Shown here: piece by piece, positions 17,887 through 57,780 of the stretch
Layout of the letters: the number at the start of each line of letters is the position of its first letter
Position numbering within the stretch: the first letter of the stretch is position 1
Virus record (IMG/VR): IMGVR_UViG_3300045988_159790
Direction: 5' to 3' (one strand)
Length of the DNA: 64,000 nt
Source of the DNA: a virus
Notes under the pieces: generated by a model
Seen by the model: only the letters and a program-made list of their open reading frames with translations
What the model was told of the DNA's origin: nothing
Database searches by the model: none
Translations under genes and position numbers: made by a program

Positions 17887-17899
17887 GTAAAATTTAATA

Positions 17900-17934: not shown

Positions 17935-17958
17935 AGAGATAAAAGGAGAAAAAAGATA

Positions 17959-18552: not shown

Positions 18553-18580
18553 TATAGGAAAGAGAGGTGCTTTATTTACA

Positions 18581-20410: not shown

Positions 20411-20428
20411 AGATAAAAGGAGAATAGA

Positions 20429-21779: not shown

Positions 21780-21809
21780 CAAATTATTTATTTAAGGAGG
21801 AAAAATATA

Positions 21810-23073: not shown

Positions 23074-23100
23074 GCGGGAATCCCGGTCAAGGATTTCTTT

Positions 23101-23140
23101 AGCGGGGTCGGGTTATTATACTCGACCCCGCATTTTTTTT
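23101..23140 (+). terminator. strong intrinsic terminator after major tail protein/Ig extension
   Basis: GCGGGGTCGGGTTATTATACTCGACCCCGC + ATTTTTTTT. Confidence 0.85.
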
Positions 23141-23159
23141 GTTTATAGGAGGTGAGACA

Positions 23160-24314
23160 GTGTCAAGAAAAAGTAATAAAAATACTGATACAGCATTATT
23201 TACTGCTAATGAAATTGAAGAGATAATTACTAATGTAGAAGGAATATTTAATTCTACAGAAGTAGATAATATTAGAGAAAAATTATTCAATATTTTAACA
23301 AAATTAAAAAGCTTAAAAGAAGACCTTATAAATGAATCTAATAAAAGAAATACTGTAAAACAAATGCGAGATTTTATAACAAAGAGATATACTGAATTAA
23401 AACCAAAAGATATACAGACGAAAAATCAAATGATAAAAATATATAACCATCATTTAACACAGTTATATGCTGAAGTTTATTTATGGATTATGAAAACTAG
23501 AGAATTTTTAACAGACCAAATAATTGATTATCATATATATTTTGGTGATGATACAAATAATATTAAATTATTAGATTTGAATGATTATGAGCTATTAAGA
23601 GTTTTAACTGGCTCAGTAAACGAAATTAAAATAGTGACTAGTAAGCTATTAGAACAAATTAGACAAGAAAGATTGGAAGGAAAACAGTTAGTTCAAAAAG
23701 AAGGAATACTTTCTAATGAAGAGAAGCAAAGAATAATAGATAGTCAAAATATTTCAGATTCACAAGGCGCACAACTTTCTAAATATTACAATTTAGCATT
23801 ACAAAGTGGGCATCTTAAAAAAGAAGGAAATTCAACTTATTATGTAAAATTACCATTTCCAAAGTACCAAAAAGGAAAAGGGAAAGAAAAGGAAGAAGTA
23901 AGTTTCAATTTTGGACATGTAGCGGAAGGTTTTGATACAGCTTTTAGTGAGGCACAAAGAGACGAAAAATTATTCACATTAAACGATTTTGCTATTAAAA
24001 TTGAACGAGATAATGTTAAAGCAGCTCAAGGTGGAGATAATTCTACATATATGTTTCATCATTATTCTGTTAAAGCGAATATGAAAGATAGTGGAGCTTC
24101 TCTTCAGCTTACTTCAACTATAATGTTAAATTTAGATAGATTAATCAAATTACTAAATACAAACACTGAAGAACTAAAGAAAAGAGAAGTTCTAAAAGAG
24201 TTGTATTTTAAAGAAAAAAAATATGAAGATTTAAAAAATGGTGCAGAATTAATGAATTCTCAGATAGATAAAGCTTTAGATATCGTTCTAAATGATTTTA
24301 ATAAGAAGACTTAG
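23160..24314 (+). CDS. hypothetical protein in tail assembly chaperone position (K/E-rich, helical)
   Basis: GTG 23160 with AGGAGG RBS (track TTG 23139 less likely); between major tail and tape measure. Confidence 0.5.
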   Translation: MSRKSNKNTDTALFTANEIEEIITNVEGIFNSTEVDNIREKLFNILTKLKSLKEDLINESNKRNTVKQMRDFITKRYTELKPKDIQTKNQMIKIYNHHLTQLYAEVYLWIMKTREFLTDQIIDYHIYFGDDTNNIKLLDLNDYELLRVLTGSVNEIKIVTSKLLEQIRQERLEGKQLVQKEGILSNEEKQRIIDSQNISDSQGAQLSKYYNLALQSGHLKKEGNSTYYVKLPFPKYQKGKGKEKEEVSFNFGHVAEGFDTAFSEAQRDEKLFTLNDFAIKIERDNVKAAQGGDNSTYMFHHYSVKANMKDSGASLQLTSTIMLNLDRLIKLLNTNTEELKKREVLKELYFKEKKYEDLKNGAELMNSQIDKALDIVLNDFNKKT

Positions 24315-34457: not shown

Positions 34458-37400
34458 ATGTCAAATAAGAATAGTCAAGATATTTCTTCAGCTTTATTAG
34501 CGGCATTTGAAACTTATAGTAAAAGTACTGCCGCGTCAGTAAAAGCATCTGCTACTATTGAATGTACAATTACTGGTATCGTAGATAGAGCTGCAGGCAT
34601 TTATACAGTTAAATATCAAAACAATATATTTAATGTATACTCTAATAACGCTGACTACTCTATTAAAGATATTGTTTATGTTTTAGTTCCAGAAAATGAT
34701 TTTTCAAAAAAGAAAATGATTGTAGGATTAATAAAGCATAATACTAATGAATCAGCATCTTCTGCAGAGGAAGATTCTACAGCTAGCCAATATCTTGTAA
34801 TTGCAGACAATGTTTTAGATATTAACTCAAAAGAAGTTATAAACCTTTGTTCTTTTCATACAGAAACGAAAGATGTTTTTTCAAGTAATGTAGATTCCGC
34901 AGACCAAGTTTTAATGCCAAAATACTTAAAACATTATAAAACTTATGCTTTATCTATGAAAGTAAAAACTGCATTAATAGATAGTCAAAGAGTTGGCGGA
35001 GATTATGGTATTATATTACAACTTCCATTTTTTAGATATAGTGAAGATAATGATAAGATGATTAATGATAAGACTTTAACATTTGATATTCATAAGATGT
35101 TAGGTAATCCATATAATTATCAAGTTTGGACACAACAGACTTATTACTTTACATTAGAAGAAAATGATGAAGAATTTTATGATAGCCGCAGAAGCCCTAT
35201 TATTTCTGCTTTTGTGAGAGACTTTAATCAAGATGAAAATATTGATACAAATGATATTTTTATTAAAGATGTTCAATTTTTAGTTGTTCAAGCTTTAACA
35301 GAAACAGAAATGCAAGGTAACTATTTAAAAATAAAATCCGATACTGGAGAATACTTTTTAAAGAACTACTTTGAAACAACGAAAACTTTAAAGCCAATTT
35401 TAAAGATAAAAGGACAAGAAAAAAATATTAATGGTTATGATTGCTATTGGTTTGTAAAAGATGCTTCAGTTAATGCAACTAATAATCCTGACTATTGTAC
35501 AAAAGGTGGACTTGGTTGGAAGTGTCTTAATGAGAAAACTAAAGTTAATACAAATGACAATGGCGATACTTCTTATCAATATGTTACAAATGTATATAGT
35601 TATCAAGTAAAGATAGAAGATGTTAAAACATCATTAATTTATAAATGTGTATTAACAAAAGATACAGAAAGAATTTCTGATGAATTAGAAATTGTAAATC
35701 TTAATTCAGATATTAAGTTTAGTTTGTATTCAACAACAGGAAGTAATAATTTTGTAAAAAATATAGGTAAAGTAAGTCTTGCGGCAGACCTTTATTATCC
35801 AGGAATTACAGATAATGAAAACTCAACAAGTAATTTTAAATATTACTGGGATAGATACGCAAAAGATGGAACTTACTTAGATAGTGACTTCTTAACTTTT
35901 AGTGATATAAATGCTAAAGAGAACGGACATTATATTACTAAAGGTACTTATCCGACTTCTAAAATGCAAGATAGTAATTTAATTACTTGTACAGTATTTG
36001 AAGAAAAACAACGCGCGGATGGTAGTATAGAGAGCATTAACCTTGGTAGCGCAGATTTAGCTGTCGCCGCAGCGGATAGTTATGAATATGTAACTTATTT
36101 ATATAATGCAACTAGATTATATAATTATGATTCAGATGGAGATTCTCCTTTTACAGAATATTATGATAAAGATACAGTAAACTTAAATGAAATTGAACCA
36201 ATTACATTTAAGATATATAAAGCAAATGGAAATGAATTAACAGAAACAGAATATTTAGCTGTTAATATTATTTGGAGAATACCAAAGAAGTCTTTGATTA
36301 ATATTAATCCTGTTTTAATTAGTGAGGAAGACGATAATTATTATTATGTTCGTGGCGAGAGAAATCTTCCTTATACCATTGATGCTACATACAATCCTTC
36401 AAAAAGCAATAATGAGATTACTTTATATACCACTTTTGCGGGAGTTGAGATGTTAAATAATACATCATTTACTTTTGTTAAAGATGGCGGAAATGGTACT
36501 AATGGTACAAATTATAGTGCAGAAATTATCATTGACGGATATGCATATGGACAAAAGAATCCTACTACTAACGGAGTGTATAAACTTTGTTATGTTTATT
36601 TTGCAGATAGTGCAAAATGGATGCTATATGATATGCAAAATAATCAATTAATTGATGATACAACATTAAGGACTCTTGATGTAAGAGTATTTAGTCAAGG
36701 TAAAGTTATTACTGATGATACTTTATATACAGTAACATGGAGTATGTTTGATAATAAAGCAACTAATCCTTGCTTTACTTTTGATAGTACAAAAAATCAG
36801 TTAATTCCATCAAAGATATTTGACCCTTCAGAAGTATATTGTAATATTTTGCAAGCAGAAGTAACTGTTACAGATACAAGCGTTGCTAATAAGAATTGGA
36901 TAATTTATGCTTACTATCCTATTGAAATTACTTATTGTGCAAAAGAGTCAGATGTTATTTATACAGATGAAAAAGGCAATAAGAAATGCGCAGTTCCAGT
37001 GCTTAATGGCGGATATTCAGAAGTCTTATTTGCTTCAGATGGTACAAATCCAAAGTGGGACAATAGTTCTAACTTTACTGTTGTAGATAATCTATATAGT
37101 ATAGATAGTTCAAATGTTTATGATTATGAATGGGAGGCTTCAGAAAACTTAAACATTTCAGAATATAGAAGTGCAGACTTACCAGAAAATCAGAAAGTAA
37201 TTGAGCCTACTTCAAAATTTGATAGTGGTATTAGTAAGAACTATATAAAGACAACACTTACTCTTGATTCAAAAACTAAAGAGGGATTAACTAAAACAAA
37301 AGCAGAATATGATAAAGAAGCAGAAGATTATCAAAATCAAATTACTACTTTAACAACTAATTATTCAACTTTAAAAAATGTTTTAAGCTATTTCCAATAT

Positions 37401-39896
37401 AAACCTTGGTTAAATGTTTTAACAGAAGTAAAAGATTATATTTCTCTTAATAATGATATGATTAGAACTTTAAGAGAAAGTGAAAGTCTTTTAAGTGATG
37501 TTAGTAAATATTATCAACAACATACTGAAATTGGCGGAATTGTAACTATTGATTTTGTTACTTATAATAACTATATCAATAGAGATGTTACAAATGCATT
37601 GTTAGGTAAAACTTTGCCAGTTTCTTTTTCAACTAGAAAAATTGATTTAACAGATAGACAGCTTGCTAGGTTAAAAGAAAAACTTGATATTTCTGTTTAT
37701 AATGTATTTATAAATTATGTAAATATATATAATGATAAAGTAGAAGTAGTTCTTCAATATAAGAATCAATTAATCGCAGAAGAAGGCGGTGCTAGAAAGT
37801 ATGAAAGTAAAAGAGAAAAACTCTATAATCTTTGCTCTGGAGATTCTACTAGTGCAATTACAGGAGGAATCTATCCTGTTTCCCGCATGATTTCTACTTT
37901 TGATAAGATTAAAACAACATATAAAAATTCTTATGATAATTTGGTCGCATTACAAAATCATTTCACAGAGATAAGTTCTTATTCTGAATACAGCGATATT
38001 TTTGAAAATATGAAAAAGACACTGTTAGATTATGGAAAATTATCAGATTCAGAAGAGAATATGGAAATTAAAGAAAATCTTACAAATGATTATAATGAAC
38101 AATTAAAATCATTATATAGTTCTAAAATGGCAGCTATAACTCATGCTAATGCGTATGATGTATTAATTGGTGTTGAAATGAATAGAATTATTCATATTAA
38201 ACCAATTATTATGTTGTATAATAGATATGCTATGTCTAACATTAATGGTTGGGATGGTAATAAAATATATACAGGTGATGAAGATAGCTTCTTATTAGCT
38301 CCGCAAGTAGGCGCAGGTAAAAAAGATAGTAATAATAAATTCACAGGTATGGTTATGGGACTTAGAAATTTGAATAAGACATCTGCCGCAGAAGATACCC
38401 AAGTAGGTCTTTTTGGATATAGTGGCGGCGCGCAATCACTTTTCTTAAATGCGGAAGATGGTTCTGCAATATTTGGTCTTCATAAAAGAGGACAAATTAT
38501 TATTGACCCATTAACATCACAAGCCTTGTTATACAGTGGTAATTTTTATAAAGAATTCGGTAAAGATGGAAAGCCAACTGGTTATTCTTCTCAAAATAGG
38601 AATAATCAAGGTATGCAGATTGATTTAACAACACCTAAAATTGAGTTTGGTTCTGGTAATTTCATAGTTACTCCTGAGGGGCATGTAACTGCAAAAGGTG
38701 GAGGCTCAATCGCGGGTTGGCAAATTGGAAATACAACTTTAAAAAGTTCTGATGGGAATGTTACATTAGATTCTCAAAATACTAAGATTTATGGTCATGG
38801 TCACTCTACTCTTGACAATACTACTGATGGATTCTACTTAGGTCCAGATGGTATTAGTATAGGTTCTTGTTTTAGAGTAAATCAAGATACTTTATTATTA
38901 GGAAGCTTAAGAAGCGGTAGTAGACATTGGGAATTAAAGTATGATGCAGATAATAGCTATTTAAGTTACGGTAGAAAAGGAAGTAGTAGTTCTGTTTATG
39001 TAGGAACAGATGCAATCACTTTAGGTCGAAAATTCAGTGTTAATAACGAAGGTGAACTAACTGCAACATTAGGTCACATAGGCGGCTGGAGTATTGAAGA
39101 TAAAAGTTTATCTTGTGATAGTAGGAGTGCTTCTATGTATAGTGGTAGTCATACTACTTTAGATTCAACATCTGGCGGATTTTATTTAAGTTCAGATGGA
39201 TTTAGTCTTGGTAAACATTTTAAATTTAAAGAAAATGGAGAAGGAACAGTTGGTAATCTATATGTTTCTGATTCGGGTTGGTTAGCTTTAAATGTAAATG
39301 AAGATAATGAGTGTGGTATAGGCACTAATTCATCTGCATTTTATGGTGGAAGTCCAGATTCGAGTACTGCGCCTTTTAGAGTTACATATGATGGTCATTT
39401 ATATTCAACTAATGCTACAATATCTGGTGATATAACTGCTTCAAGTGGAACTATTGGTGGTTGTACGATTGAAGAAGGTGTCTTAAAAGTAGACACTATA
39501 AATATTAGAACTGGAGCTATTACTGCAAATGAAATTGCTTCACATACTATTACATCTGATGAAATAGATACTGATAGACTATATTGTAATGCTGCGAATG
39601 TTAAAGGAACTCTTACTGCAAATCAAATAGATTGTCAAGGTGTTATTGATGCTGGAACTATTAATGCAGACAATATCACAACAGGAACTCTTTCTGTAGA
39701 AAGATTAAGTAGTCCAAAGCATACGAAGGCTATTGAATGGTATAGCTATTTTATACCTGGTTTTACGCAAAAAACAATTCAGGTTAATGAAAAACAGGCT
39801 GATGGGACATATCTTTTTCATGATGTTACAATTGATGTAATTCAAAGTAATACTCAACATTACTTCTTAGCAGCAGTACCTGATACTGGTAATTAA
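34458..39896 (+). CDS. large tail/baseplate-associated protein or tail fibre (1812 aa) with C-terminal GGW/IGGW beta-repeat region
   Basis: RBS AAAGGAGG; repeated ...SIAGWQIG.../...IGGWSIED.../...TIGGCTIEEG... motifs and G/S/T-rich C-terminus typical of phage fibre proteins. Confidence 0.55.
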   Translation: MSNKNSQDISSALLAAFETYSKSTAASVKASATIECTITGIVDRAAGIYTVKYQNNIFNVYSNNADYSIKDIVYVLVPENDFSKKKMIVGLIKHNTNESASSAEEDSTASQYLVIADNVLDINSKEVINLCSFHTETKDVFSSNVDSADQVLMPKYLKHYKTYALSMKVKTALIDSQRVGGDYGIILQLPFFRYSEDNDKMINDKTLTFDIHKMLGNPYNYQVWTQQTYYFTLEENDEEFYDSRRSPIISAFVRDFNQDENIDTNDIFIKDVQFLVVQALTETEMQGNYLKIKSDTGEYFLKNYFETTKTLKPILKIKGQEKNINGYDCYWFVKDASVNATNNPDYCTKGGLGWKCLNEKTKVNTNDNGDTSYQYVTNVYSYQVKIEDVKTSLIYKCVLTKDTERISDELEIVNLNSDIKFSLYSTTGSNNFVKNIGKVSLAADLYYPGITDNENSTSNFKYYWDRYAKDGTYLDSDFLTFSDINAKENGHYITKGTYPTSKMQDSNLITCTVFEEKQRADGSIESINLGSADLAVAAADSYEYVTYLYNATRLYNYDSDGDSPFTEYYDKDTVNLNEIEPITFKIYKANGNELTETEYLAVNIIWRIPKKSLININPVLISEEDDNYYYVRGERNLPYTIDATYNPSKSNNEITLYTTFAGVEMLNNTSFTFVKDGGNGTNGTNYSAEIIIDGYAYGQKNPTTNGVYKLCYVYFADSAKWMLYDMQNNQLIDDTTLRTLDVRVFSQGKVITDDTLYTVTWSMFDNKATNPCFTFDSTKNQLIPSKIFDPSEVYCNILQAEVTVTDTSVANKNWIIYAYYPIEITYCAKESDVIYTDEKGNKKCAVPVLNGGYSEVLFASDGTNPKWDNSSNFTVVDNLYSIDSSNVYDYEWEASENLNISEYRSADLPENQKVIEPTSKFDSGISKNYIKTTLTLDSKTKEGLTKTKAEYDKEAEDYQNQITTLTTNYSTLKNVLSYFQYKPWLNVLTEVKDYISLNNDMIRTLRESESLLSDVSKYYQQHTEIGGIVTIDFVTYNNYINRDVTNALLGKTLPVSFSTRKIDLTDRQLARLKEKLDISVYNVFINYVNIYNDKVEVVLQYKNQLIAEEGGARKYESKREKLYNLCSGDSTSAITGGIYPVSRMISTFDKIKTTYKNSYDNLVALQNHFTEISSYSEYSDIFENMKKTLLDYGKLSDSEENMEIKENLTNDYNEQLKSLYSSKMAAITHANAYDVLIGVEMNRIIHIKPIIMLYNRYAMSNINGWDGNKIYTGDEDSFLLAPQVGAGKKDSNNKFTGMVMGLRNLNKTSAAEDTQVGLFGYSGGAQSLFLNAEDGSAIFGLHKRGQIIIDPLTSQALLYSGNFYKEFGKDGKPTGYSSQNRNNQGMQIDLTTPKIEFGSGNFIVTPEGHVTAKGGGSIAGWQIGNTTLKSSDGNVTLDSQNTKIYGHGHSTLDNTTDGFYLGPDGISIGSCFRVNQDTLLLGSLRSGSRHWELKYDADNSYLSYGRKGSSSSVYVGTDAITLGRKFSVNNEGELTATLGHIGGWSIEDKSLSCDSRSASMYSGSHTTLDSTSGGFYLSSDGFSLGKHFKFKENGEGTVGNLYVSDSGWLALNVNEDNECGIGTNSSAFYGGSPDSSTAPFRVTYDGHLYSTNATISGDITASSGTIGGCTIEEGVLKVDTINIRTGAITANEIASHTITSDEIDTDRLYCNAANVKGTLTANQIDCQGVIDAGTINADNITTGTLSVERLSSPKHTKAIEWYSYFIPGFTQKTIQVNEKQADGTYLFHDVTIDVIQSNTQHYFLAAVPDTGN

Positions 39897-47987: not shown

Positions 47988-48016
47988 GGGCGGCTTAATT
48001 GCCGCCCATTTTTTTA
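47988..48016 (+). terminator. intrinsic terminator after repeat-containing fibre gene
   Basis: GGGCGGCTTAATTGCCGCCC + ATTTTTTTATT. Confidence 0.85.
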
Positions 48017-48084: not shown

Positions 48085-48300
48085 ATGAGTAAAAGTGATT
48101 CATCTAAGTTCATCTCACAAATAACACTTGGAGAAGATAAAGTTGTATTAAAAGACCCAAATGCTATTGAGAGAGAAAAAGATAGTGATGTTGAAGCTGT
48201 TTTAAATTTTGTAAATGGTTTTAATATTTTTGGTATGAATATAACTTTAAACAAGGAAGATAATACAATTAATTTTGGAAAACAGGAGGGTGAAGAATGA
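48085..48300 (+). CDS. small hypothetical protein, paralog of next gene
   Basis: RBS GGAGGTG; shares V.LKDPNAI...DSD...LNF.NG..FG...TINFG with 48297..48641. Confidence 0.5.
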   Translation: MSKSDSSKFISQITLGEDKVVLKDPNAIEREKDSDVEAVLNFVNGFNIFGMNITLNKEDNTINFGKQEGEE

Positions 48301-48641
48301 GTGATAAAGTAAGTACGAAGATTACTTTTGAAAATGAAGTTTATACTGTAAAAGACCCAAATGCAATAAATAAATATGAAGATAGCGCTGATTCTGATGA
48401 AGTACAAGGTCAGGGTGATGTAACTGGAATTTTAAATTTTTCAAATGGAATGAAATTATTTGGAATTACTGGTGTCGATTATGATAAAGATACTGAAACA
48501 ATTAACTTTGGGGAATATAATCCTGAAGACAATGCGCCAGTATATAAATTTAAAATAATGACAGAAGATGAGTATTCTGTTTTAACTGATAAAGACCCTT
48601 ATACTTTTTATTTATTAGAAAAAAGTAGTAAGGAGGAATAA
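48297..48641 (+). CDS. small hypothetical protein, tandem paralog; C-terminal ...DKDPYTFYLLEK motif
   Basis: RBS AGGAGGG, ATGA overlap with previous gene. Confidence 0.5.
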   Translation: MSDKVSTKITFENEVYTVKDPNAINKYEDSADSDEVQGQGDVTGILNFSNGMKLFGITGVDYDKDTETINFGEYNPEDNAPVYKFKIMTEDEYSVLTDKDPYTFYLLEKSSKEE

Positions 48642-50545
48642 TGCAAGAATATTATTTAGATGGTAATGATAATAAAACTAAAACAAGTTTTTATCAAGAT
48701 ATTAATAGTGGAATATATAATAATGTTGCTATTGGTAAAATATATTTTGATAATAGATTACTTTGGACTGCACCAAAGAAAAAATATGCTATTATTAATA
48801 TCTATAAAATGAGCAGAATTAGAACAATAGAAAATAATCAGTATAATTATTTAACTTATGATATTAATTTTACAAAAGGCGCCTTACCAGAATATTATAA
48901 TGTAGCAGAAAAAGACTCTCCTGCCGCAATTTATGCAAAAGAAGGTAAGCTTTATTCAACTGCAGATTATGCTTATTTTAGTGAATTAAGATTATTAAAT
49001 TCATATATGGGGTTCGGTGGCATACCGACAGAAGGACCTATCACAAGTCAACCAATTGATATAGGTAATTCAAATATATGGTTTAATAAAAGCAATTATC
49101 ATGGTAGTTATAATGATGATGGATTTATGACTTTTTCAGATTGTTACTGGAATTATCAAAATATTATTTTTCCCAATACTGTAACTAATCTATCCTATAC
49201 TTTTTCAAATGCTTGGGGATTAACTTGGCAGTTACCTCTTAAATCTAGTGATTTTGTATTAAATATGTATTATACTTATTTTAATGCGGGTGGCGGTATA
49301 GAAATTATAAATAATAAAGTTCAAAGAAAATCTATTAATAATTGGAGTACTTTATGTTTAATGCATGAAGGCGGAATTGGCAATAATGTATTAGATATGC
49401 AAAGTACTTTTGAAGGTAGTTCTTTAACGGTTCCACCTTGGCCTCATGCTATGGATAATTCATGGGGTTTTTTTGGTCCTAATACGGTAAGAGCTATATC
49501 TACTTATCGTAGCTGTCCTATGATTACTGCAGTAGGGATTGATTGGATGGGACATAGTGATTCTAATATTTTTCCTACTAATTTAAAATATATTAGTCAA
49601 GTTTTTTATAATTGTCAAAATTTAACAACTGCAGTAGTTGGAGTACAAGACCCAGCAAATACTTATATTTGGGAAGTATATCGTGATTGTCCAAATATAA
49701 ATTTAATACTTATGGACCCAACGGTATCTAATTTTGGAGGTAGTATTTTTGGAGGCTGGAATTGGTGCATTGGTGGGGATTGTGCTTTACTTAAAGATAA
49801 TATAGTTTTTAGAGCTGGTGGTTGTGGTGCTTTGTTAAATGCCAGTGCTTTAGGACCTAGTTTAGGTTATAATGCTAGAAGACAAGTTAATAATATGAGT
49901 TTTAGTATGTCATTAAATGTAGTAGATTTTTCTTATTGCGCAGATTCTTGTTCAAATCTAAATTATTTTGAATTTGAAGGTGAAAATGTTATTAATATAG
50001 CATGGTGTTTTAATAACTGTAATAATTTAAGAAATGTATATCAAAGACAATTAATGCAAAATTGTAATACTGTAGATATGAGCTTTACTTTTTCTTATTG
50101 CCCTAAATTAGAATATGATGAAACTTTATTAATAACTTCAAAAAACTTAATGACTATTCAATGTTGTTATTTTGGTTGTACTAATTTAAAACATATTCAT
50201 GACCGTTATATCACTAGTAATTGGACAAGAATTGGCGGAGATAAATTGGTAAATGTAAGTGCTGCATTTCAAGGATGTCCATTATTAGGTGGTAATTATT
50301 ATTTTGCTTCTGAAAATATCATATATGGAGATTTATTAGGATATCAATCTTCACCTGGAAGAGGGAATATCTTAAATATTTATATTAAATCAAATACTTT
50401 AACAAATAATAGTTTTGCAAAACATTATGCAAAAAATATTTGGTCTAATGGGAATGGTTATGATGATGCTGCAAATAATATTTTTATATATTATGCTGAA
50501 AGACAACCAGAATATAATCGTTATAAAGAAGCTAATTGGGGATAA
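48641..50545 (+). CDS. LRR_5 (BspA-type leucine-rich repeat) protein; putative receptor-binding/fibre protein
   Basis: Repeated F.nC.nL/YY.C.NL units; C-terminal WSNGNGYDDAANNIFIYY motif shared with 51679..54312. Confidence 0.55.
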   Translation: MQEYYLDGNDNKTKTSFYQDINSGIYNNVAIGKIYFDNRLLWTAPKKKYAIINIYKMSRIRTIENNQYNYLTYDINFTKGALPEYYNVAEKDSPAAIYAKEGKLYSTADYAYFSELRLLNSYMGFGGIPTEGPITSQPIDIGNSNIWFNKSNYHGSYNDDGFMTFSDCYWNYQNIIFPNTVTNLSYTFSNAWGLTWQLPLKSSDFVLNMYYTYFNAGGGIEIINNKVQRKSINNWSTLCLMHEGGIGNNVLDMQSTFEGSSLTVPPWPHAMDNSWGFFGPNTVRAISTYRSCPMITAVGIDWMGHSDSNIFPTNLKYISQVFYNCQNLTTAVVGVQDPANTYIWEVYRDCPNINLILMDPTVSNFGGSIFGGWNWCIGGDCALLKDNIVFRAGGCGALLNASALGPSLGYNARRQVNNMSFSMSLNVVDFSYCADSCSNLNYFEFEGENVINIAWCFNNCNNLRNVYQRQLMQNCNTVDMSFTFSYCPKLEYDETLLITSKNLMTIQCCYFGCTNLKHIHDRYITSNWTRIGGDKLVNVSAAFQGCPLLGGNYYFASENIIYGDLLGYQSSPGRGNILNIYIKSNTLTNNSFAKHYAKNIWSNGNGYDDAANNIFIYYAERQPEYNRYKEANWG

Positions 50546-50558
50546 AAGGAGGGCTTAA

Positions 50559-51671
50559 ATGAAAAATTGGAACTTTAATGGTTCATTAAAAGAAAATAAT
50601 AAAAGAGTTCTTACTGAAGCAGAAGGTACTGTAAACATGATTGGCGCAAGAAAAGACCCTTCTGTATCTTTTAATAATGACAATGGTAAGCTTAAAATGA
50701 CATTAAATATACCTGCGGGAGGCGGTTCTTCTGGTGGAGGCAGTGAAGAATCTGGAGTAGGTAGAACATATGTTACTGAAGATGGCGAAAGCCGTGGAGA
50801 ATATTTTAATGTTTATGAAGCACCTGAAGGAACTGATTATATTGGAAATGCATGGGGGTATGGCTCTCATGCAGAGGGCGGAGATTTATGGAGAAGTGAT
50901 GTTTCTCAAACACCTTCTTATTTAGAATATGATGCAGAAAAAATACCCTATAATATAATAGCTAGAGATACTCTTTTTGCAGCAGGGTCTTGTGTATATA
51001 TTCACACTTCTGCAGCGATAGGCTTAAATTCTCATGCCGAGGGGTATCAATGTATTGCTGCGGGAGATGCTTCTCATGCAGAAGGATATAAAACATTTGC
51101 AGATAGTAGTGCATGTGGAGCGTCGCATGCTGAAGGTTATAAAACAAAAGCAACTGGTAAATATAGTCATGCAGAAGGATATCAATCAGAAGCTAGTGGA
51201 GGAGCATCTCATGTAGAGGGTACTAATACAAATGCTACTGGATGGGGTTCTCATGCAGAAGGATGTAGTACAATAAGTGCGTGTGATTATAGTCATGCAG
51301 AAGGATACTATACAAAAGCTAATAGAAGTATGTCTCATGCTGAAGGTAACAATACTATTGCAGATGGAGTAGCTGCTCATGTAGAAGGTAATACAACTAT
51401 TGCAGGTAGCGATTATCAGCATGTACAAGGAAGGTATAACATTGCAGATTATAATAATAAATATGCTATGATTATTGGAAATGGAACTGGTAGTAGTAGT
51501 AATCGTAGAGCCAATGCCTTAACGGTAGATTGGGGAGGAAATCAAACAATTGCAGGTGAATTATATATTAAGAATTCATCCCAACCTTTGATTAGATGTT
51601 TAACTCAATCAGAATATGATAATTTAGCTACTAAAAATCCATATACATTATATTTAATAAAGGAGGAATAA
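50559..51671 (+). CDS. fibre protein with YadA-head/Hep_Hag-like beta-roll repeats (SHAEGY...A.G ~14-aa period, >=10 copies)
   Basis: Periodic SHAEGY.T.A.G repeats; C-terminal ...KNPYTLYLIKEE motif shared with 48297..48641. Confidence 0.55.
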   Translation: MKNWNFNGSLKENNKRVLTEAEGTVNMIGARKDPSVSFNNDNGKLKMTLNIPAGGGSSGGGSEESGVGRTYVTEDGESRGEYFNVYEAPEGTDYIGNAWGYGSHAEGGDLWRSDVSQTPSYLEYDAEKIPYNIIARDTLFAAGSCVYIHTSAAIGLNSHAEGYQCIAAGDASHAEGYKTFADSSACGASHAEGYKTKATGKYSHAEGYQSEASGGASHVEGTNTNATGWGSHAEGCSTISACDYSHAEGYYTKANRSMSHAEGNNTIADGVAAHVEGNTTIAGSDYQHVQGRYNIADYNNKYAMIIGNGTGSSSNRRANALTVDWGGNQTIAGELYIKNSSQPLIRCLTQSEYDNLATKNPYTLYLIKEE

Positions 51672-51678
51672 ATATTAT

Positions 51679-54312
51679 ATGTTAATTATTAATAATTTTA
51701 ATATTTGCGATGGATACTATAATAATAGTCCTCTTATAGCAGCTTATTGGGGTAGTAATTTAGTTTGGCAGAAACAACTTTCTAATCCATATGTTAGATA
51801 TTTAAACGGAATTGCTTTTAAAAATATTTTCGATACTTTAGAATATGGAGCCTATTCTGAAAATATTGCTAATATTTGTTTTTATAATGCTTCTAATGAG
51901 ATAGCTAATCATTTTACAAAAAATATCTTTTTTGCATATAATGAACCAATAAATTTTAGAACTACAACCCGAAATATCTTTATTGAAGATAATAAAGAGC
52001 CTCCTTCAGAAATTTTTCTTGTAGGAGATTGTAGCTATTTATTATCAAAATGGCAAACGCAAGCTTATTATTTTGATATTAAAAATAATAAAAATAAAAT
52101 TCCTTCTTTAAATTTTCATTATGCAGAAAATTTAGCTTTTTTTTTAGGGGACCCCTATTATTATAATTATAAAGTTTATTCAAGATATTCCAAAAATAAT
52201 ACTTTTTATTACTATCTCTTTGATGAAGTACCATTTTCTATAGATTGTGGAGATAATACTTTAAATTTATATTGTGCATATTATAATCAAAATACTATTA
52301 TAAAAGCAAAAAATCTATGTGGTGAAAATACTATTTCACTATATGGTAGTTATGAGAATTGTTCCAATTTAGTAGCTTTTCCGCAATGTAAGAATAATGT
52401 TATAGATATGTCTCGTACTTATTATAATTGCAGCAACTTGATAGGTACTCCAGTATGTGGAGATAATGTTATAAATATGGATTGTACATATTATAATTGT
52501 AGTAATATTACTGGGCAGGCAAGAATAAGCAAAAAAGCTACTATGGTATCTCAGACTTATGCTTTTTCAGGCGTAAATGAGGTAGCTCGAGAATTAAATC
52601 CTCTAATGACCCATTATAATTGGGTATATTTAGGTTGTCATAATATAAAAAATATTTATTGGGATTCAAAAATAAATTATAGAAATATTGGAGAACTAGA
52701 CCATTATGGTTTTTTTAATCATTATTTTAGTGGAGTGTATGCAGATACTGGAATTGAAGAGGCTTTTTTCCCTTTTATTAACAATAATTCATATTATGAA
52801 TTAGAGTCTGGCTACTCTATGTTTCAATCTTGTCAAAATCTTCATAAAATAAATTATTCTTTTGATAATAATATAACTAAAATAAGCGGACATGTCTTTA
52901 TAAATAATAGTTTCTCATATTGTCCTAATTTAAAAAATATTCATTTTCCAAATTATGCAACTTCAGTATCTTTTTTATCTCAAAATACAGGAGTGACTTC
53001 TATTAATTTTGATAATCTTATTAATACTTCTAGTGTTACATTAGACTTATCTTATAGTCAAAATTTAATAGAGGTTAATAGTTGTAATATAAATTATTTA
53101 CGTTCGTATAGAACTGTTTATTATTATTTTGAAAATTGCAGTAATTTAAAAATTTTTAATGTTAGTAATTTAAACCTAGGAGGCGATACCTGGGCTGGAG
53201 GTGTAAAGTTAAATAACTGTATTAATTTATATTCTGCCAAAGTAGATGAGTTTCCTCATGTAAACTTTTATAATTGTAGAAATTTAAAAAATATAGTTCT
53301 TGGAAAAAAAATAAGAGAATTATATCATACTTTTGAAAATTGTATAAGTTTATCATCTGCAATACTACCAGAAGATTTTTCTAATAGTAATAAAACAGGA
53401 CATTATCCAGATAGAGGCTTGCTCTTCTGTATGGAAGCAGCTTTTAAAAATTGTACAAATTTATTATCTGTTAATGGAGGTTTACAATTATTTAGAAGCG
53501 CTGCGGATAGAAAGGAAATTTTTTGTAATTGTTATAATCTTGTAAATGTGCCAACTTCTTTTTATAATAATGCAAAATATAATTTTATTATGTTTCAATA
53601 TGATTATAATACTAATAATTATGGTATTTGGAATAATACTTTTGCAAACTGTTATAATTTAATTACAGCTCCTTTTATTCCTGTTAGGAGTTACAATGGA
53701 TGCTATTTCTATGATACTTATTGGAATTGTACAAATTTAAGGTATTTAAAAGTAGAAGGTATTGATATGAATGATTATTATAATATAAATAAAGATATGC
53801 TTCAATATAACATATCTTTAAGTAGAACTTTTGGATATTGTAGATGTTTGAACAAAGAGGGCTTCGGACCTTTATTTAATAGAATATTAAATAATGTATC
53901 CTTTTTATTTGAAACTTTTATTGGTTGCGATAATTTATATGAAGCTTTTGAAATGCCAAATGTTAGACTAATGGAAGGTGCATATAGTAATTGTAAAAAT
54001 TTAATTACTGCATATAGTGGACCAAATACAATAGATTTATATTCAACATATTCAGATTGTCCTAATTTAAGAGGCAATCTTTATCTTCAAAATAATAATA
54101 TGAATAATATTAGTCGTTGTATTTATAATAGGAATAATCAGAATATTTTAAATATTTATGTAAATTCAAACACAAAAACCAACAATACTTTATATTATAA
54201 TAATTTATATGAAATATGGAGTAATGCAAATTATTGGAATATATGGTCTAATGGTTTAGGATATGATGATGCAAAGAACAATGTTTATGTTTATTACTTA
54301 GATAAAATGTAA
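51679..54312 (+). CDS. LRR_5 (BspA-type) repeat protein, larger paralog of 48641..50545
   Basis: Many NCxNL repeat units; shared C-terminal WSNGLGYDDAKNNVYVYY motif. Confidence 0.55.
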   Translation: MLIINNFNICDGYYNNSPLIAAYWGSNLVWQKQLSNPYVRYLNGIAFKNIFDTLEYGAYSENIANICFYNASNEIANHFTKNIFFAYNEPINFRTTTRNIFIEDNKEPPSEIFLVGDCSYLLSKWQTQAYYFDIKNNKNKIPSLNFHYAENLAFFLGDPYYYNYKVYSRYSKNNTFYYYLFDEVPFSIDCGDNTLNLYCAYYNQNTIIKAKNLCGENTISLYGSYENCSNLVAFPQCKNNVIDMSRTYYNCSNLIGTPVCGDNVINMDCTYYNCSNITGQARISKKATMVSQTYAFSGVNEVARELNPLMTHYNWVYLGCHNIKNIYWDSKINYRNIGELDHYGFFNHYFSGVYADTGIEEAFFPFINNNSYYELESGYSMFQSCQNLHKINYSFDNNITKISGHVFINNSFSYCPNLKNIHFPNYATSVSFLSQNTGVTSINFDNLINTSSVTLDLSYSQNLIEVNSCNINYLRSYRTVYYYFENCSNLKIFNVSNLNLGGDTWAGGVKLNNCINLYSAKVDEFPHVNFYNCRNLKNIVLGKKIRELYHTFENCISLSSAILPEDFSNSNKTGHYPDRGLLFCMEAAFKNCTNLLSVNGGLQLFRSAADRKEIFCNCYNLVNVPTSFYNNAKYNFIMFQYDYNTNNYGIWNNTFANCYNLITAPFIPVRSYNGCYFYDTYWNCTNLRYLKVEGIDMNDYYNINKDMLQYNISLSRTFGYCRCLNKEGFGPLFNRILNNVSFLFETFIGCDNLYEAFEMPNVRLMEGAYSNCKNLITAYSGPNTIDLYSTYSDCPNLRGNLYLQNNNMNNISRCIYNRNNQNILNIYVNSNTKTNNTLYYNNLYEIWSNANYWNIWSNGLGYDDAKNNVYVYYLDKM

Positions 54313-54328
54313 TAAAGGAGAGCAGATA

Positions 54329-54763
54329 ATGATAACAACCACAATAAATAGCTTAACTAAAAAAGCTGAAAATTCAGATACTACATACCAAATTGCAGTA
54401 AAACAATTTCTAGTAGAACCTTTAAGAGGTTCTACTGGAGTTAATAATCTTGAAGAACAATTTTTATTAGGAGTTGATTGTGTAACAACAGAGCAAGAGG
54501 ATTCTAGTACACATGTAAAAACAATAGTACAAGAATTTAGAAACGCGGATTCTGTTACAACTAATTATTATACAATCACTTCAACTATACAACCAGAACT
54601 AAGTGCGGGATACACCGCTGCATATACTGAAATAGAAAGACATGTTCTCTCTTTTGTTTCTGCGGCTGGCACTATTACTGTAGCAACTAAGGTTGTATCA
54701 AAAAAGAAAGAGAACAATATTACTTCTACTAAGACAGTAATTACAAATAGTCTGGCGGGTTAA
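54329..54763 (+). CDS. hypothetical T/S-rich protein, last gene of fibre operon
   Basis: RBS AAAGGAG; strong terminator 54754-54783 overlaps its stop. Confidence 0.5.
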   Translation: MITTTINSLTKKAENSDTTYQIAVKQFLVEPLRGSTGVNNLEEQFLLGVDCVTTEQEDSSTHVKTIVQEFRNADSVTTNYYTITSTIQPELSAGYTAAYTEIERHVLSFVSAAGTITVATKVVSKKKENNITSTKTVITNSLAG

Positions 54764-54783
54764 AATACCCGCCTTCTTTTTTG
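54754..54783 (+). terminator. intrinsic terminator ending fibre operon
   Basis: GGCGGGTTAAAATACCCGCC + TTCTTTTTT. Confidence 0.85.
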
Positions 54784-55661: not shown

Positions 55662-56444
55662 ATGTTCAATTCAAACAGTGGTTATTCATTAGCCGATATT
55701 GCTGCGGCAACCGGCAATAATAACTGTAACAATGGCGGTTGGAATGACGGAGGTGCCTGGTGGATTATTATCTTGTTCTTATTCTGCTTTGCTGGCGGAT
55801 GGGGAAATGGACGAGGTGGACTCTTCGGAGGTTCAGATTCTACAGGTAGTGGTATAACAGATGGTTATATTTTAACTTCAGATTTCGCTAACATCGAAAG
55901 GAAAATCGACAATGTAAACAACGGTATCTGCGATGGATTCTATGCTATGAATACTGGTATGTTAAATGGCTTTGGTCAGGTAAATAACAATATTACACAG
56001 CAAACAATAGCAGATATGCAGAATACTAACGCAGTAACTGCTCAAATTACCGCGTTAAGTAATCAGATGAGTCAGTGCTGCTGCGATAACAAATTCCAGT
56101 CTGCAACGCAATCAGCTGACTTAAATTATCGCTTAGCTGAACAGAGTTGCCAGACTCGTCAGACTATAGCGGATGCTGCGCAGGCAATAACATTAGGAAA
56201 TGATGCTAATACTCGTAGTATCTTAGCTGCTATCCAGGATATGAATACTCAAGCATTACAAGATAAGATTGCTACTCTTACAGCAGACAATCAGGCTCTT
56301 AAGTTTGCTGCTTCTCAGCAAGCTCAGAATGCATATCTTGTTCACACTTTAGCACCAAGTCCAAACCCAGCATATATTGTTCCTAATCCTTACACAGGAA
56401 ATTATGGATACAATAATTGTGGTTGTTGTGCATGTGCAGGCTAA
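55662..56444 (+). CDS. hypothetical protein with one TM helix, Gly-rich segment, Q-rich helical middle and Cys-rich termini (QCCCDN; NNCGCCACAG)
   Basis: RBS AAGGAGG. Confidence 0.5.
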   Translation: MFNSNSGYSLADIAAATGNNNCNNGGWNDGGAWWIIILFLFCFAGGWGNGRGGLFGGSDSTGSGITDGYILTSDFANIERKIDNVNNGICDGFYAMNTGMLNGFGQVNNNITQQTIADMQNTNAVTAQITALSNQMSQCCCDNKFQSATQSADLNYRLAEQSCQTRQTIADAAQAITLGNDANTRSILAAIQDMNTQALQDKIATLTADNQALKFAASQQAQNAYLVHTLAPSPNPAYIVPNPYTGNYGYNNCGCCACAG

Positions 56445-57443: not shown

Positions 57444-57760
57444 TGAAAATAAATGGTATTGATTGGAGGGTTTATTTTGTTGAAAAAGATAATGAAAAAT
57501 TACAAAGAAGTGATGGCTCATATACCCTCGGTTCATGCGATAATAATACTAATATTATTTATCTTAGAGAGGATTTGTATGGAAGGTCATTAAAAAAAGT
57601 CTTATGTCATGAACTAGCGCATGCGGCAATGTTTTCGTATCAAATTAATTTGACATTAGACCAAGAAGAGCTAATTGCAGATTTTATTGCAACTTATGGA
57701 GAAGAAATTATTGATATTACGAATTTTCTTTTTAATAAATTAAAGGAGAGGTCTTATTGA
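57443..57760 (+). CDS. small HExxH zinc metallopeptidase-like protein (SprT/ImmA-like)
   Basis: CHELAHAAMF motif; TAATG overlap with previous gene; stop inside bidirectional terminator hairpin. Confidence 0.5.
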   Translation: MKINGIDWRVYFVEKDNEKLQRSDGSYTLGSCDNNTNIIYLREDLYGRSLKKVLCHELAHAAMFSYQINLTLDQEELIADFIATYGEEIIDITNFLFNKLKERSY

Positions 57761-57780
57761 CCTCTCCTATTTTTTTGTTT
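57745..57780. terminator. terminator hairpin at convergence of rightward and leftward arms
   Basis: GGAGAGGTCTTATTGACCTCTCC + TATTTTTTTGTTT on plus; sits between convergent genes. Confidence 0.7.

Follow-up and report, generated by a model that had tools for sequence, protein, structure and literature searches.

Predicted BspA-like leucine-rich repeat proteins as candidate exchangeable host-recognition proteins in a phage tail operon

Related systems and the tail operon

BspA-type leucine-rich repeat (LRR) proteins, represented by the structures 4fs7, 4h09, 4gt6, 4fd0, PcpA (4cp6) and TpLRR (6mlx), are built from repeats of ~22–27 residues with an (F/Y)xxCxNL core. Annotations as BspA, LRR_5 or 26-residue-repeat proteins already exist in uncultured phages, and LRR proteins of uncultured Caudovirales, Myoviridae sp. 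ctIty1 and Aeromonas phage D3 carry BspA- or LRR-type labels at the level of annotation only. The literature on LRR, BspA or DUF285 in phage tails yielded annotation-level mentions only (for example for Vibrio phage pir03) and no functional study. Siphovirus cassettes of receptor-binding proteins (RBPs) and fibres from Gram-positive hosts combine conserved N-terminal attachment with variable distal domains, and the baseplate of 80alpha carries an RBP, FibL and FibU, of which the extra fibre FibU is dispensable (PMC7048315).

We analysed a window of 64,000 nucleotides of viral DNA (IMG/VR record IMGVR_UViG_3300045988_159790; all positions refer to this whole stretch), in which two LRR genes, A and B, flank a third gene, Y. 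The open reading frames of A and B were found exactly where the initial annotation had placed them, at 48641–50545 and 51679–54312 on the + strand, and encode 634 and 877 aa. They share the repeat length and core of the BspA-type proteins, but lack a signal peptide, a lipobox, a dockerin and a cell-wall anchor, and carry instead group-specific N-terminal domains and a C-terminal cap common to LRR proteins of other phages. They differ also in that their repeats are irregular, except for three 23-residue two-cysteine repeats in B, in that their genes lie in the tail operon of a phage, and in that their scores miss the Pfam cut-offs. As in 80alpha, the tape measure and hub genes are followed by genes for several different peripheral proteins. 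The conserved N-terminal and variable distal organisation of the Gram-positive siphovirus cassettes recurs in A and B, and the dispensability of FibU is paralleled by the optional slot of B. In contrast to 80alpha-type cassettes, however, the distal domains of A and B are predicted LRR solenoids rather than beta-propeller/tower, beta-sandwich or coiled-coil trimers, and no similarity to BppU-type Ig anchors was detectable at their N-termini.

The window most likely derives from a large (~145–150 kb), very long-tailed phage of siphovirus type with a gut bacterium as host. PHROG matches in the window include terminase, portal and virion families. The portal has its kin among SPbeta-like Enterococcus phages and the gut phage phAss-1, and the gene at 25021–34353 encodes a tape measure protein of 3110 aa with a PhageMin_Tail domain, compared with ~3150 aa in phAss-1. 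The GC content is ~30% and the window encodes NrdD, which indicates an anaerobic host; we infer an anaerobic, probably low-GC, gut bacterium. A search of 185,579 GTDB species genomes with the conserved 559-aa tail protein revealed no related prophage, and therefore no host was assigned.

On the + strand the tape measure gene is followed by genes for proteins of 1812, 150, 859, 763, 249, 559, 71 and 114 aa, then by A, Y, B and a gene for 144 aa. The 763-aa product matches tail PHROG 1887; a PDB sequence search with the 763-, 859- and 1812-aa proteins returned no Dit or Tal homologs, and only a weak lambda J-like stretch. Within the tail module A, Y and B come after the tape measure and hub genes and share their orientation, which is the location of RBP and tail-fibre genes. 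The features of the region are listed below.

47988..48007, + strand: terminator-like GC hairpin and T-run; 7 pairs, all G-C, then ATTTTTTTAT
48085..48300, + strand: 71-aa open reading frame, kept in all related contigs; 36% identity over 77 aa to the 114-aa protein
48297..48641, + strand: conserved 114-aa protein with a Phage_tail_C-like end, DPYTFYLLEK; 89–100% identical across relatives
48641..50545, + strand: gene A, predicted BspA-like LRR protein of 634 aa, found in every related contig
48641..48997, + strand: A residues 1–119, conserved N-terminal domain with hairpin motif IGK(I/V)YFDNxLLW; putative tail-tip anchor
48998..50284, + strand: A residues ~120–548, variable irregular LRR solenoid with the sub-threshold LRR_5 match at 432–531; putative binding surface
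50285..50545, + strand: A residues 549–634, conserved C-terminal cap LNIYIKSNTLTNNSF...IWSNGNGYDDAANNIFIYYA, homologous to the B cap
50559..51671, + strand: gene Y, 370 aa, with conserved N-terminus MKNWNFNGSLKEN..., nine SHAEG-headed repeats and a C-terminal Phage_tail_C
51679..54312, + strand: gene B, second predicted BspA-like LRR protein, 877 aa, in an optional, highly variable slot
51679..51777, + strand: B residues 1–33, conserved B-type N-terminal motif ..NI.D..Y....I.(A/S)AYWG..L(V/I)W.K, common to all B-type variants
52333..52539, + strand: B residues 219–287, three regular 23-residue two-cysteine repeats, NV.xMxxxYxNCSNLxGxPxCGx
53983..54312, + strand: B C-terminal cap region, residues ~769–877, homologous to the A cap
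54329..54763, + strand: conserved 144-aa gene, last of the unit; 93–95% identity between the window copy and relatives
54754..54773, + strand: terminator-like hairpin at the downstream end of the cassette unit, overlapping the 144-aa stop codon

The best explanation of this arrangement is that the genes for 71 aa, 114 aa, A, Y, B and 144 aa form the last transcription unit of the tail operon, spanning 48085–54763 and bracketed by hairpins. The hairpin at 47988–48007 lies directly 3′ of the conserved 559-aa tail gene, at the upstream edge of the unit. The 114-aa protein matched Phage_tail_C (PF24243) below the cut-off (E 0.084), and is possibly a small connector or adaptor.

Repeats, predicted fold and relatives of A and B

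The repeat core of A and B is [FY]xxCxNL, and both proteins contain tandem repeats of ~22–26 residues with the aromatic-x-x-Cys-x-x-Leu core of LRR_5. B contains 18 copies of the motif [FYWLM]xxCxx[LIMV], compared with a mean of 1.9 (sd 1.3, max 8) in 5000 shuffles; A contains 8, compared with a mean of 0.9 (max 5) in 5000 shuffles. Most pairs of motifs in B are spaced by 19–46 residues, with a mode of 22–27.

The profile-HMM search for LRR_5 that had been proposed as a check was negative for both proteins at the strict cut-off. Against gathering cut-offs of 27.7 bits for LRR_5 (PF13306) and 25 bits for DUF285 (PF03382), A reached 23.6 bits with LRR_5 (E 5.3e-5, residues 432–531), B gave no LRR_5 match at E<=1, and DUF285 matched neither protein at E<=1. 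The B ortholog P0012 passed the LRR_5 cut-off with 28.5 bits, and B-type proteins of 387 and 386 aa scored below it, with 27.5 and 26.6 bits. PHROGs contained no family for A or B, NCBIfam gave nothing meaningful, and a PDB sequence search returned no match for A and LRR matches for B only at E 0.09–0.35. A profile of the A family matched 7539 proteins at E<=1e-3 and 1735 at E<=1e-10, through positions ~160–620 and mostly ~250–560. Seven large proteins among these matches were scanned: DUF285 scored 380–510 bits in six and 55 bits in the seventh, and LRR_5 was also present in four of the seven, with one protein being mainly LRR_5 (146 bits).

The best Foldseek matches of the AF2 model of A were 4h09, PcpA 4cp6, 4fs7, 4gt6 and 4fd0 (E 2e-4 to 1e-3, probability 0.99–1.00). 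For the predicted B model 4fs7 was best (E 1.9e-7), and 4h09 and 4gt6 were also in the top four. The best 50 matches listed for each model were all LRR proteins, with BspA-type structures first. TM-scores against solved LRR_5 structures were low (0.17–0.47), as expected because solenoids differ in length and curvature. The A model had a pLDDT of 74 overall and mostly >80 from about residue 250; confidence was low at residues 1–35 of A, within its proposed anchor, and at residues 1–188 of B, a region that covers the proposed anchor. The same fold was predicted for the phage-encoded LRR proteins of uncultured Caudovirales, ctIty1 and D3 named above, and for gp353 of both Bacillus phage G and Klebsiella phage Eowyn; A and B matched annotated phage LRR proteins at E 2.5e-7 to 1e-3, with an identity of just 12–16%. 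On the grounds of predicted fold, remote profile relatives and the B ortholog above the LRR_5 cut-off, A and B are predicted to belong to the BspA-like LRR_5/DUF285 superfamily, in agreement with the BspA-type identity first proposed for both. Judged by their relatives, they are at least as close to DUF285 as to LRR_5.

The similar ends of A and B had been taken to indicate duplication and divergence. The end motifs IWSNGNGYDDAANNIFIYY and IWSNGLGYDDAKNNVYVYY are present as quoted, with 13/18 positions identical counted from the W. BLASTP aligned the C-terminal parts of A and B with an E-value of 1e-13 and 28% identity across 212 columns, and profile–profile comparison of the two families with hhalign gave a probability of 99.8% (E 1.4e-27, 171 columns). 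As judged by these alignments, A and B are paralogous in their C-terminal third, and the duplication is old. The same cap is found on LRR fibre proteins of unrelated metagenome contigs, some of them phage-like, and the end motif is therefore not evidence for a recent local duplication. The B cap is identical to that of its ortholog in the related contig L008 at 15/18 positions, compared with 13/18 for A, and some A orthologs differ more from A in the cap than B does. At the DNA level the B cap has 75% identity to L008 across 53983–54321, and contains a repeat (D3) with 75% identity over 59 nt to 50435–50493 in A. Thus the proposed duplication stands for the C-terminal region, but the end motif gives no sign that it was recent or local.

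When A and B were compared with 50,697 deposited phage genomes by tblastn, no match was obtained. LRR proteins of this type were present in 10 of the 50,697 records, in all cases unannotated or hypothetical. In large phage-like contigs, LRR genes occur in up to four tandem copies. The description of such domains as unusual phage tail components therefore holds for deposited genomes, but not for uncultured phages, with their existing annotations and tandem copies. Annotated BspA-type LRRs exist in many uncultured phages, and A and B add an uncharacterised variant; the annotated phage LRR proteins carry a BspA or LRR label, whereas the A family (10 clusters, from metagenomes only) has no annotated member.

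The 23-residue two-cysteine subtype found in B makes up entire fibre proteins in other phage contigs. The B relatives P0013–P0024 (loci L006, L012, L013 and L014) are LRR fibre proteins of this kind, encoded on phage-like gut metagenome contigs of 213–244 kb. They have in common with residues 219–287 of B the repeat NV(T/I)xMxxxYxNCxNL(T/I)GxPVCGx, and P0013, P0018 and P0020 also have the C-terminal cap (...LN(I/L)Y(V)P...NIYIYP). They contain tens of very regular copies, whereas B has three such repeats in an irregular solenoid, and their N-terminal regions are unlike that of B; some have C-terminal beta-sandwich-like extensions. Pfam gave no match whatever on the pure-repeat two-cysteine proteins. 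The B relatives adjoin other large LRR proteins at L006, L013 and L014, and at L012 the relative lies two genes after a Peptidase_G2 gene; in general these fibre proteins have other large genes of tail type as neighbours. One protein of L014, a large phage-like contig, fuses DUF285 (76 bits) to Phage_tail_C (37 bits).

Comparison with cellular genes, suggested initially as a check for capture from a host, gave no evidence for it. A repeat-unit alignment scan detected the 23-residue subtype in only 2 of 185,579 GTDB species genomes, and one of the two contigs is laid out like the large phage-like contigs. No high-identity cellular homolog of A or B was found, which led us to reject the recent acquisition of a host BspA gene. 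When the best relatives of cellular appearance were looked up by cluster, the members were all metagenome proteins without taxonomy.

Exchange of A, Y and the B slot among related contigs

Six related phage contig types have near-identical flanking tail genes (91–100% aa identity), whereas aa identity across types is 31–92% for A and 45–90% for Y. The window matches contig L010 in A (92%) but not in Y (45%), and contig L004 in Y (90%) but not in A (31%). The B slot (386–909 aa across relatives) holds an LRR gene of 877, 909, 387 or 386 aa, holds other fibre genes, or is empty; L009 and L005 have no B-type gene, and B may be absent where Y is retained. A, Y and the B slot form the most variable block at the end of the tail operon, each reassorting independently.

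DNA breakpoints fall at codon ~119 or ~56 of A, at the A cap, at codon ~33 of B and at the B stop. The N-terminal DNA of A is 97.8% identical to L001 as far as 48998, beyond which similarity is lost. Identity returns at 50285, where the cap begins, at 92.6%, and the cap together with the first ~235 codons of Y (its N-terminal ~60%) makes up one block, 50285–51262, in common with L001. Across relatives, residues 1–60 of A are 81–90% conserved, compared with 31–56% in the centre. At the N-terminus of B, DNA similarity with L001, L004 and L008 stops at 51774–51777. The invariant columns of the B N-terminal motif are N8, I9, D11, Y14, A22, Y23, W24, G25, L28, W30 and K32, and the motif resembles the hairpin motif of A. 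The region therefore shows the pattern of RBPs and tail fibres: a conserved attachment domain, a variable distal domain and mosaic exchange among close relatives. The initial suggestion of a swappable module is borne out by alleles of A, Y and the B slot that reassort on near-identical flanks; this independent reassortment, with breakpoints at N-terminal anchors and C-terminal caps, supports a putative swappable receptor-binding module.

Two other sources of variation were considered. Switching by an invertible segment was rejected, as the cassette genes are all co-oriented and inverted repeats are only short and AT-rich. Targeting by a diversity-generating retroelement was set aside, as the differences include large indels and whole-gene replacements and are not of the kind of point changes in a short C-terminal region.

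The last eight SHAEG-headed repeats of Y are mostly 14 residues apart, with a 42-nt periodicity in the DNA. Y carries a Phage_tail_C domain (PF24243; 29.7 bits against a cut-off of 23.7, residues 346–368) and matches phrog_25468 with an E-value of 1.9e-30. Its C-terminus has the same terminal motif as the 80alpha upper fibre FibU (6v8i gp68; E 0.65). The middle gene had been described as YadA-like, and this was in line with the repeats, tandem 14-residue units rich in Gly and Ala that are compatible with a left-handed beta-roll, but only weakly supported by HMM searches: Y matched NCBIfam Ata at E 0.1, YadA_head (PF05658) gave no match to the window Y at E<=1, and the precomputed YadA_head match of the L008 ortholog is only 'faint'. 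Y is a putative YadA-head-like beta-roll fibre.

Proposed role and its alternatives

We consider it probable that A and B are exchangeable LRR solenoids for host recognition at the tail tip, with A, Y and the B slot swapped by recombination. The unit at 48085–54763 would then encode the proteins at the periphery of the tail tip that recognise the host. A and B may each be attached to the tail tip or to the Y fibre through a short, conserved N-terminal domain, the variable solenoid would be the ligand-binding part, and the conserved C-terminal cap would close it. The Y fibre would have its own conserved N-terminal anchor, a YadA-head-like beta-roll and a Phage_tail_C tip. Host range would change when homologous recombination within the conserved anchors, the caps or the genes on either side exchanges the A solenoid, the Y shaft and the whole B slot independently of each other. 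Characterised phage RBPs are usually trimers and LRR solenoids usually monomers, which counts against this proposal. The lack of PHROG matches for A and B, their scores below the strict Pfam cut-off, the low AF2 confidence in the proposed anchors and the negative search for a related prophage were also counted against it.

The variability of A and B would equally suit another diversifying pressure, for example on a protein that adheres to surfaces other than those of the host. In bacteria and protists, LRR proteins of the BspA family serve as adhesins that bind host matrix and cells. A and B might thus be virion-borne adhesins for non-host targets such as mucus, epithelium, food particles or bystander bacteria, keeping the phage in a favourable niche, with Y or another protein as the true RBP. 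We regard this as unlikely. B is dispensable, as L009 and L005 show, but A occurs in all seven related contig types, and the pattern of anchor, variable domain and cap is typical of host-range determinants. Modular epithelial adhesins are known from gut phages, but the examples demonstrated to date are Ig-like (PMC13370021), and no link from A or B to mammalian ligands was found. The reassortment of A and Y alleles on a near-identical backbone is what would be expected for host switching.

Somewhat less likely again is a non-virion role, in which A and B would be late intracellular or exported LRR proteins, for example binders of host-defence proteins or surface proteins of lysogenic conversion. 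The N-termini of A and B have no signal peptide or membrane anchor, and a conserved N-terminal domain with a variable remainder is the pattern of structural attachment. LRR domains are general protein-binding modules and accessory genes often lie at operon ends, both of which would suit such a role, as would the failure of A and B to match a PHROG structural family and the related LRR gene of Butyrivibrio virus Arian, which has no obvious tail context. However, A and B are interleaved with a bona fide fibre gene carrying Phage_tail_C, and relatives join DUF285 to Phage_tail_C or to long fibre-like N-terminal regions.

It is improbable that A and B help to assemble the Y fibre, as chaperones or scaffolds, rather than being binding proteins themselves. 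Fibre chaperone genes normally adjoin fibre genes, A and B do flank Y, and the A cap is co-inherited with the start of Y in some relatives (the block in common with L001). Against this, A and B are far larger than Y and than known fibre chaperones, Y is kept where B is missing, and Y alleles occur with unrelated A alleles (window compared with L004 and L010), which argues against a specific chaperone–client pair. That the repeats are a composition artefact of Asn/Tyr/Ile-rich proteins in an AT-rich genome, as the composition of B (16% Asn, 10% Tyr) and the blank (B) or sub-threshold (A) Pfam results might suggest, is refuted by motif counts above all 5000 shuffles, by the uniformly LRR Foldseek matches of the predicted models and by the profile relatives at E<=1e-10, of which those sampled are DUF285/LRR_5 proteins.

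Returning to the proposal of exchangeable tail-tip solenoids, a host-recognition role is putative, for A and B as for the LRR fold in phages generally. As the finding is based on prediction and comparative genomics alone, its present value is that of a well-defined experimental target. The seven near-isogenic contig types, which differ almost solely in their A, Y and B alleles, are a natural allelic series for host-range tests, and the N-terminal anchor and C-terminal cap offer recombination-safe boundaries for engineered tail-tip swaps. Most host-range predictors and RBP catalogues rest on the trimeric beta-helix, beta-sandwich and fibre folds of cultured phages. Should LRR solenoids prove to be genuine receptor-binding modules, such tools would miss a sizeable group of host-recognition proteins of gut phages that are now called 'hypothetical' or bacterial 'surface protein'. 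More tentatively, BspA-like LRR solenoids might constitute a distinct and widespread receptor-binding class of gut phages, with short lineage-specific N-terminal anchors, a cap found across several phage groups, a two-cysteine subtype that is essentially phage-restricted and invisible to Pfam, and a host range that evolves as entire solenoids are exchanged as cassettes. If true, phages would be using a scaffold that animals employ in TLRs and lamprey VLRs.

Position and composition of the A-Y-B unit

The window is phage DNA of about 30% GC, encoding a sigma-factor-like protein, terminase, portal, proteins matching virion-protein PHROGs and an anaerobic ribonucleotide reductase. The nearest relatives of its portal are on an unannotated human fecal contig (59.6%), in gut phage phAss-1 (38%) and in SPbeta-like Enterococcus phages (33%). 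The tape measure gene (25021-34353) encodes 3110 aa, with PhageMin_Tail at residues 193-401, implying a non-contractile tail of exceptional length. Among described groups, only the phAss-1 gut phages were found to be comparable; their tape measures have about 3150 aa and their hosts are guessed to be Clostridia (PMC10607447). Unlike the window, these phages recode TAG.

Co-oriented genes for proteins of 1812, 150, 859, 763, 249 and 559 aa lie 3′ of the tape measure gene, and the 763-aa protein matches tail PHROG 1887. They are followed by these features:

47988-48007, strong terminator-like hairpin, after the 559-aa gene
48085-48300, gene for a 71-aa protein, overlapping the 114-aa gene
48297-48641, gene for a 114-aa protein, ahead of A
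48641-50545, + strand, A, ORF of 634 aa
50559-51671, Y, ORF of 370 aa between A and B
51679-54312, + strand, B, ORF of 877 aa
52333-52539, three clean 23-residue units in B (residues 219-287)
54754-54773, second terminator-like hairpin, after the 144-aa gene that follows B

From this gene order, with hairpins at both edges, A-Y-B looks like part of a separate transcription unit, the last in the tail module. Y contains a Phage_tail_C domain above the cut-off, and its terminal motif is the one that also ends FibU (gp68), the upper fibre of staphylococcal phage 80alpha, a peripheral and dispensable baseplate fibre (PMC7048315). The 71- and 114-aa proteins are paralogs (36% identity over 77 aa) and may be connectors for the A, Y and B proteins; the 114-aa protein ends in a Phage_tail_C-like motif, DPYTFYLLEK, resembling the end of Y. 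Further downstream, a 260-aa protein (55662-56444), 96-97% conserved in relatives, is rich in Gly and Asn at its N-terminus and in Cys at its C-terminus (NNCGCCACAG); it also has a single hydrophobic segment (WWIIILFLFCFAGGW) and a coiled region rich in Gln and Ala. A function in lysis or in the membrane is possible. At the junction of the + strand late genes with - strand genes (RuvC-like, dUTPase, NrdD) lies a bidirectional terminator-like hairpin with a perfect 10-bp stem (57744-57768).

Both repeat ORFs were found on the + strand where the initial annotation had placed them. The motif [FYWLM]xxCxx[LIMV] occurs 18 times in B, mostly at spacings of 19-46 residues (mode 22-27), and 8 times in A; 5000 shuffles gave 1.9 ± 1.3 (maximum 8) and 0.9 ± 0.9 (maximum 5) respectively. 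The explanation that the repeats are a by-product of AT-rich composition is refuted by these counts, which exceed those of all shuffles. The near-identical C-terminal motifs reported for A and B are present (13 of 18 residues identical), and form the terminal part of a longer homologous stretch. BLASTP aligned A with B over 212 columns (E 1e-13), and profile-profile comparison of the two families gave 99.8% probability (E 1.4e-27, 171 columns). By this homology A and B are paralogs, at least in their C-terminal third. Neither sequence contains an N-terminal signal peptide or membrane segment, which is more consistent with assembly into virions in the cytoplasm than with an exported bacterial surface protein.

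Repeat class of A and B and their distant relatives

A scored 23.6 bits against Pfam LRR_5, under the 27.7-bit cut-off, B gave no match at E<=1, and the DUF285, PHROGs and NCBIfam models matched neither protein. Even so, both proteins are assigned to the BspA-like LRR superfamily by three independent lines of evidence: predicted fold, remote relatives and orthologs. For A, the AlphaFold2 model (mean pLDDT 74, mostly >80 from about residue 250; pTM 0.73) had as its best PDB matches the BspA-type structures 4h09, PcpA 4cp6, 4fs7, 4gt6 and 4fd0, and the remaining matches listed were all LRR proteins. The model of B (pLDDT 63, residues 1-188 unreliable) matched 4fs7 best (E 1.9e-7), with 4h09 and 4gt6 in the top four and only LRR proteins among the matches listed. 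When 1.84 billion representative proteins were searched with an A-family profile, 7539 matched at E<=1e-3 and 1735 at E<=1e-10, in many stretches and through profile positions of about 160-620, mostly about 250-560. When seven large proteins from these matches were scanned for domains, DUF285 was found in six (380-510 bits), LRR_5 above its cut-off in four (93-146 bits) and dockerin in three; one matched mainly LRR_5 (146 bits). The full-length B ortholog P0012 scored 28.5 bits against LRR_5, just over the cut-off, and short B-type proteins scored 27.5 and 26.6 bits. Of the earlier label, BspA-type LRR_5, the superfamily stands and the Pfam family does not: A and B are divergent BspA-like LRR proteins of the LRR_5/DUF285 superfamily.

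Distant relatives of B include proteins of 500-1500 aa with tens of very regular 23-residue repeats, NV(T/I)xMxxxYxNCxNL(T/I)GxPVCGx, carrying two cysteines per unit. Several end in a cap (...CFxxRNxxxxLN(I/L)YVP...NIYIYP) of the kind formed by the conserved C-terminal region of A and B. The cap motif is thus found far outside this phage group, which weakens the local duplication of A and B that had been deduced from the end motif alone. The B cap shares 15 of 18 residues with that of its ortholog at the related locus L008 and 13 of 18 with A, the identities grouping partly by gene, and divergent A alleles (L004, L005) are no nearer to the window A cap than B is. The A/B duplication is older than the divergence of these phages.

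The distant relatives were found on phage-like contigs of 213-244 kb, and terminase and/or portal genes, or a Peptidase_G2 gene, also lay at three of four of their loci. At positions 10001-23627 of the 244-kb scaffold L012, three large ORFs and a gene containing Peptidase_G2 are followed downstream by four tandem LRR_5/DUF285 genes (955-1363+ aa); on this large phage-like scaffold they look like arrayed LRR fibre paralogs. In a 394-aa protein from one large phage-like contig, DUF285 (76 bits) and Phage_tail_C (37 bits) occur together, which directly links this LRR type to phage fibre ends in one molecule.

P0013 and P0018, metagenome proteins made up almost completely of the 23-residue repeat NVTxMxxxYxNCxNLTGSPVCGx, had no Pfam match at E<=0.01, and in related proteins the repeat set off spurious Kazal_2 and DUF7736 matches; this two-cysteine LRR subtype, to which B residues 219-287 also belong, is without a family model. 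A scan for the repeat pattern covering 185,579 bacterial and archaeal species, each represented by a single genome, yielded only two loci, both on MAG contigs:

L014, JBGVED010000022.1, 'Bacilli bacterium' fecal MAG, 238 kb
L015, JAFUOX010000026.1, 'Kiritimatiellae bacterium' MAG, 94 kb

In both, LRR genes are followed by a GT2 glycosyltransferase gene. The LRR-fibre layout of L014 is that of the phage-like contig L006 (213 kb) and its relative L013 (31 kb), where terminase and portal genes are next door; L015 has only the LRR gene followed by a glycosyltransferase in common with the large phage-like contigs. Both are probably binned phage genomes and not bacterial chromosome. The subtype looks close to phage-restricted, and nothing in the scan of these species genomes points to a host gene as its recent source.

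Variation of the unit among related phages

Exact-protein look-ups and an IMG/VR scan identified six further versions of the locus (L001/L002/L003, L004, L005, L008, L009 and L010) on contigs of up to about 150 kb. The backbone around A-Y-B is almost invariant, with identities to the window of 96-100% for the 859-, 763- and 249-aa genes, 89-100% for the 559- and 114-aa genes and 93-95% for the downstream 144-aa gene. The A allele types are 92, 87, 66, 45, 44 and 31% identical to window A, and Y is 45-90% identical and 344-523 aa long. The most variable part is the B slot. Its LRR genes encode 877, 909, 386 or 387, or 405+ aa, the 877- and 909-aa types being 36% identical by BLASTP. In L010 the slot has an LRR gene with three other fibre-type genes, and in L005 and L009 it has no LRR gene, carrying only a second Y-like gene and genes for other proteins. 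In these empty or extended slots (L005 13447-17290; L009 15935-18115; L010 17012-20202) the second Y-like gene has the N-terminus of Y (MKNWNFNGSLKEN...), and the alternative genes include phrog_19291 proteins of 441-487 aa. The three loci carry an alternative fibre set with the N-terminal adaptor of Y.

A and Y alleles reassort: the window shares A with L010 (92%) but not Y (45%), and Y with L004 (90%) but not A (31%). At the DNA level the breakpoints are abrupt and coincide with domain borders. The window matches L001 at 97.8% as far as 48998 (A codon ~119); identity returns at 50285 in the A cap and runs through about the first 235 codons of Y (92.6%), and returns again at 54328, just past the B stop. 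The borders with L004 are at 48808 (A codon ~56) and at 50475-51777, a segment that spans the A cap, the whole of Y and B codons 1-33. Conservation in A is 81-90% for residues 1-60, 31-56% for residues 120-570 and 56-62% for the cap. All B-type proteins have an N-terminal motif of about 33 residues in common, and all four whose C-terminus is on the contig end in YVY(Y/F)LDK(M/I). Taken together, an attachment domain that is conserved, a distal domain that can be exchanged and recombination at the conserved edges are the classical signature of a host-range determinant. The swappable module of the initial annotation is supported by the independent reassortment of A and Y, the variable B slot and the position of the breakpoints; its receptor-binding part is putative.

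The C-terminal ~400 residues of the 1812-aa protein (34458-39896) also vary among relatives (63-95% identity, against 96-100% for the genes next after it). This part may be a second host-range hotspot; residues 1632-1675 form a weak lambda J-like stretch (E 0.05).

Proposed role and alternatives

The analysis shows the class of fold, the paralogy of A and B, their place in the operon, the distribution of conservation and the mosaicism; presence in the virion, the anchoring partner, the receptor and the host are inferred. In the joint proposal, which we think more probable than not, A and B would be tail-tip proteins, each held by a conserved N-terminal domain (the anchor), with the variable LRR solenoid as the ligand-binding part and the cap closing it. 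Y would be a beta-roll fibre next to them on the tail, and host range would change as recombination at the conserved edges swaps recognition modules. Weak points of the proposal are the low confidence with which the proposed anchors were modelled and the mounting of usually monomeric LRR solenoids on a symmetric tail. That A and B are virion adhesins for non-host surfaces is unlikely; that they are LRR proteins acting outside the virion, for example as binders of host proteins or as conversion factors, we rate lower still, and a role as assembly partners of Y is very improbable.

A and B had no match in 50,697 deposited phage genomes, among which a regular-repeat relative matched only 10 records, all unannotated or 'hypothetical'. 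Annotated examples from uncultured Caudovirales, Aeromonas phage D3, Klebsiella phage Eowyn and Bacillus phage G indicate that phage-encoded BspA-like LRRs are already known at annotation level. In the library that was searched, no paper was found that gives them a tail role or tests one. The tail-tip arrangement proposed for A and B is a standard exchangeable, putatively receptor-binding cassette with BspA-like LRR solenoids as distal domains, a principle that will not surprise a phage specialist. Putative host-recognition proteins of the LRR class are overlooked by current tools, and the versions of this locus provide a clean natural allelic series, with clear domain boundaries, for testing them.
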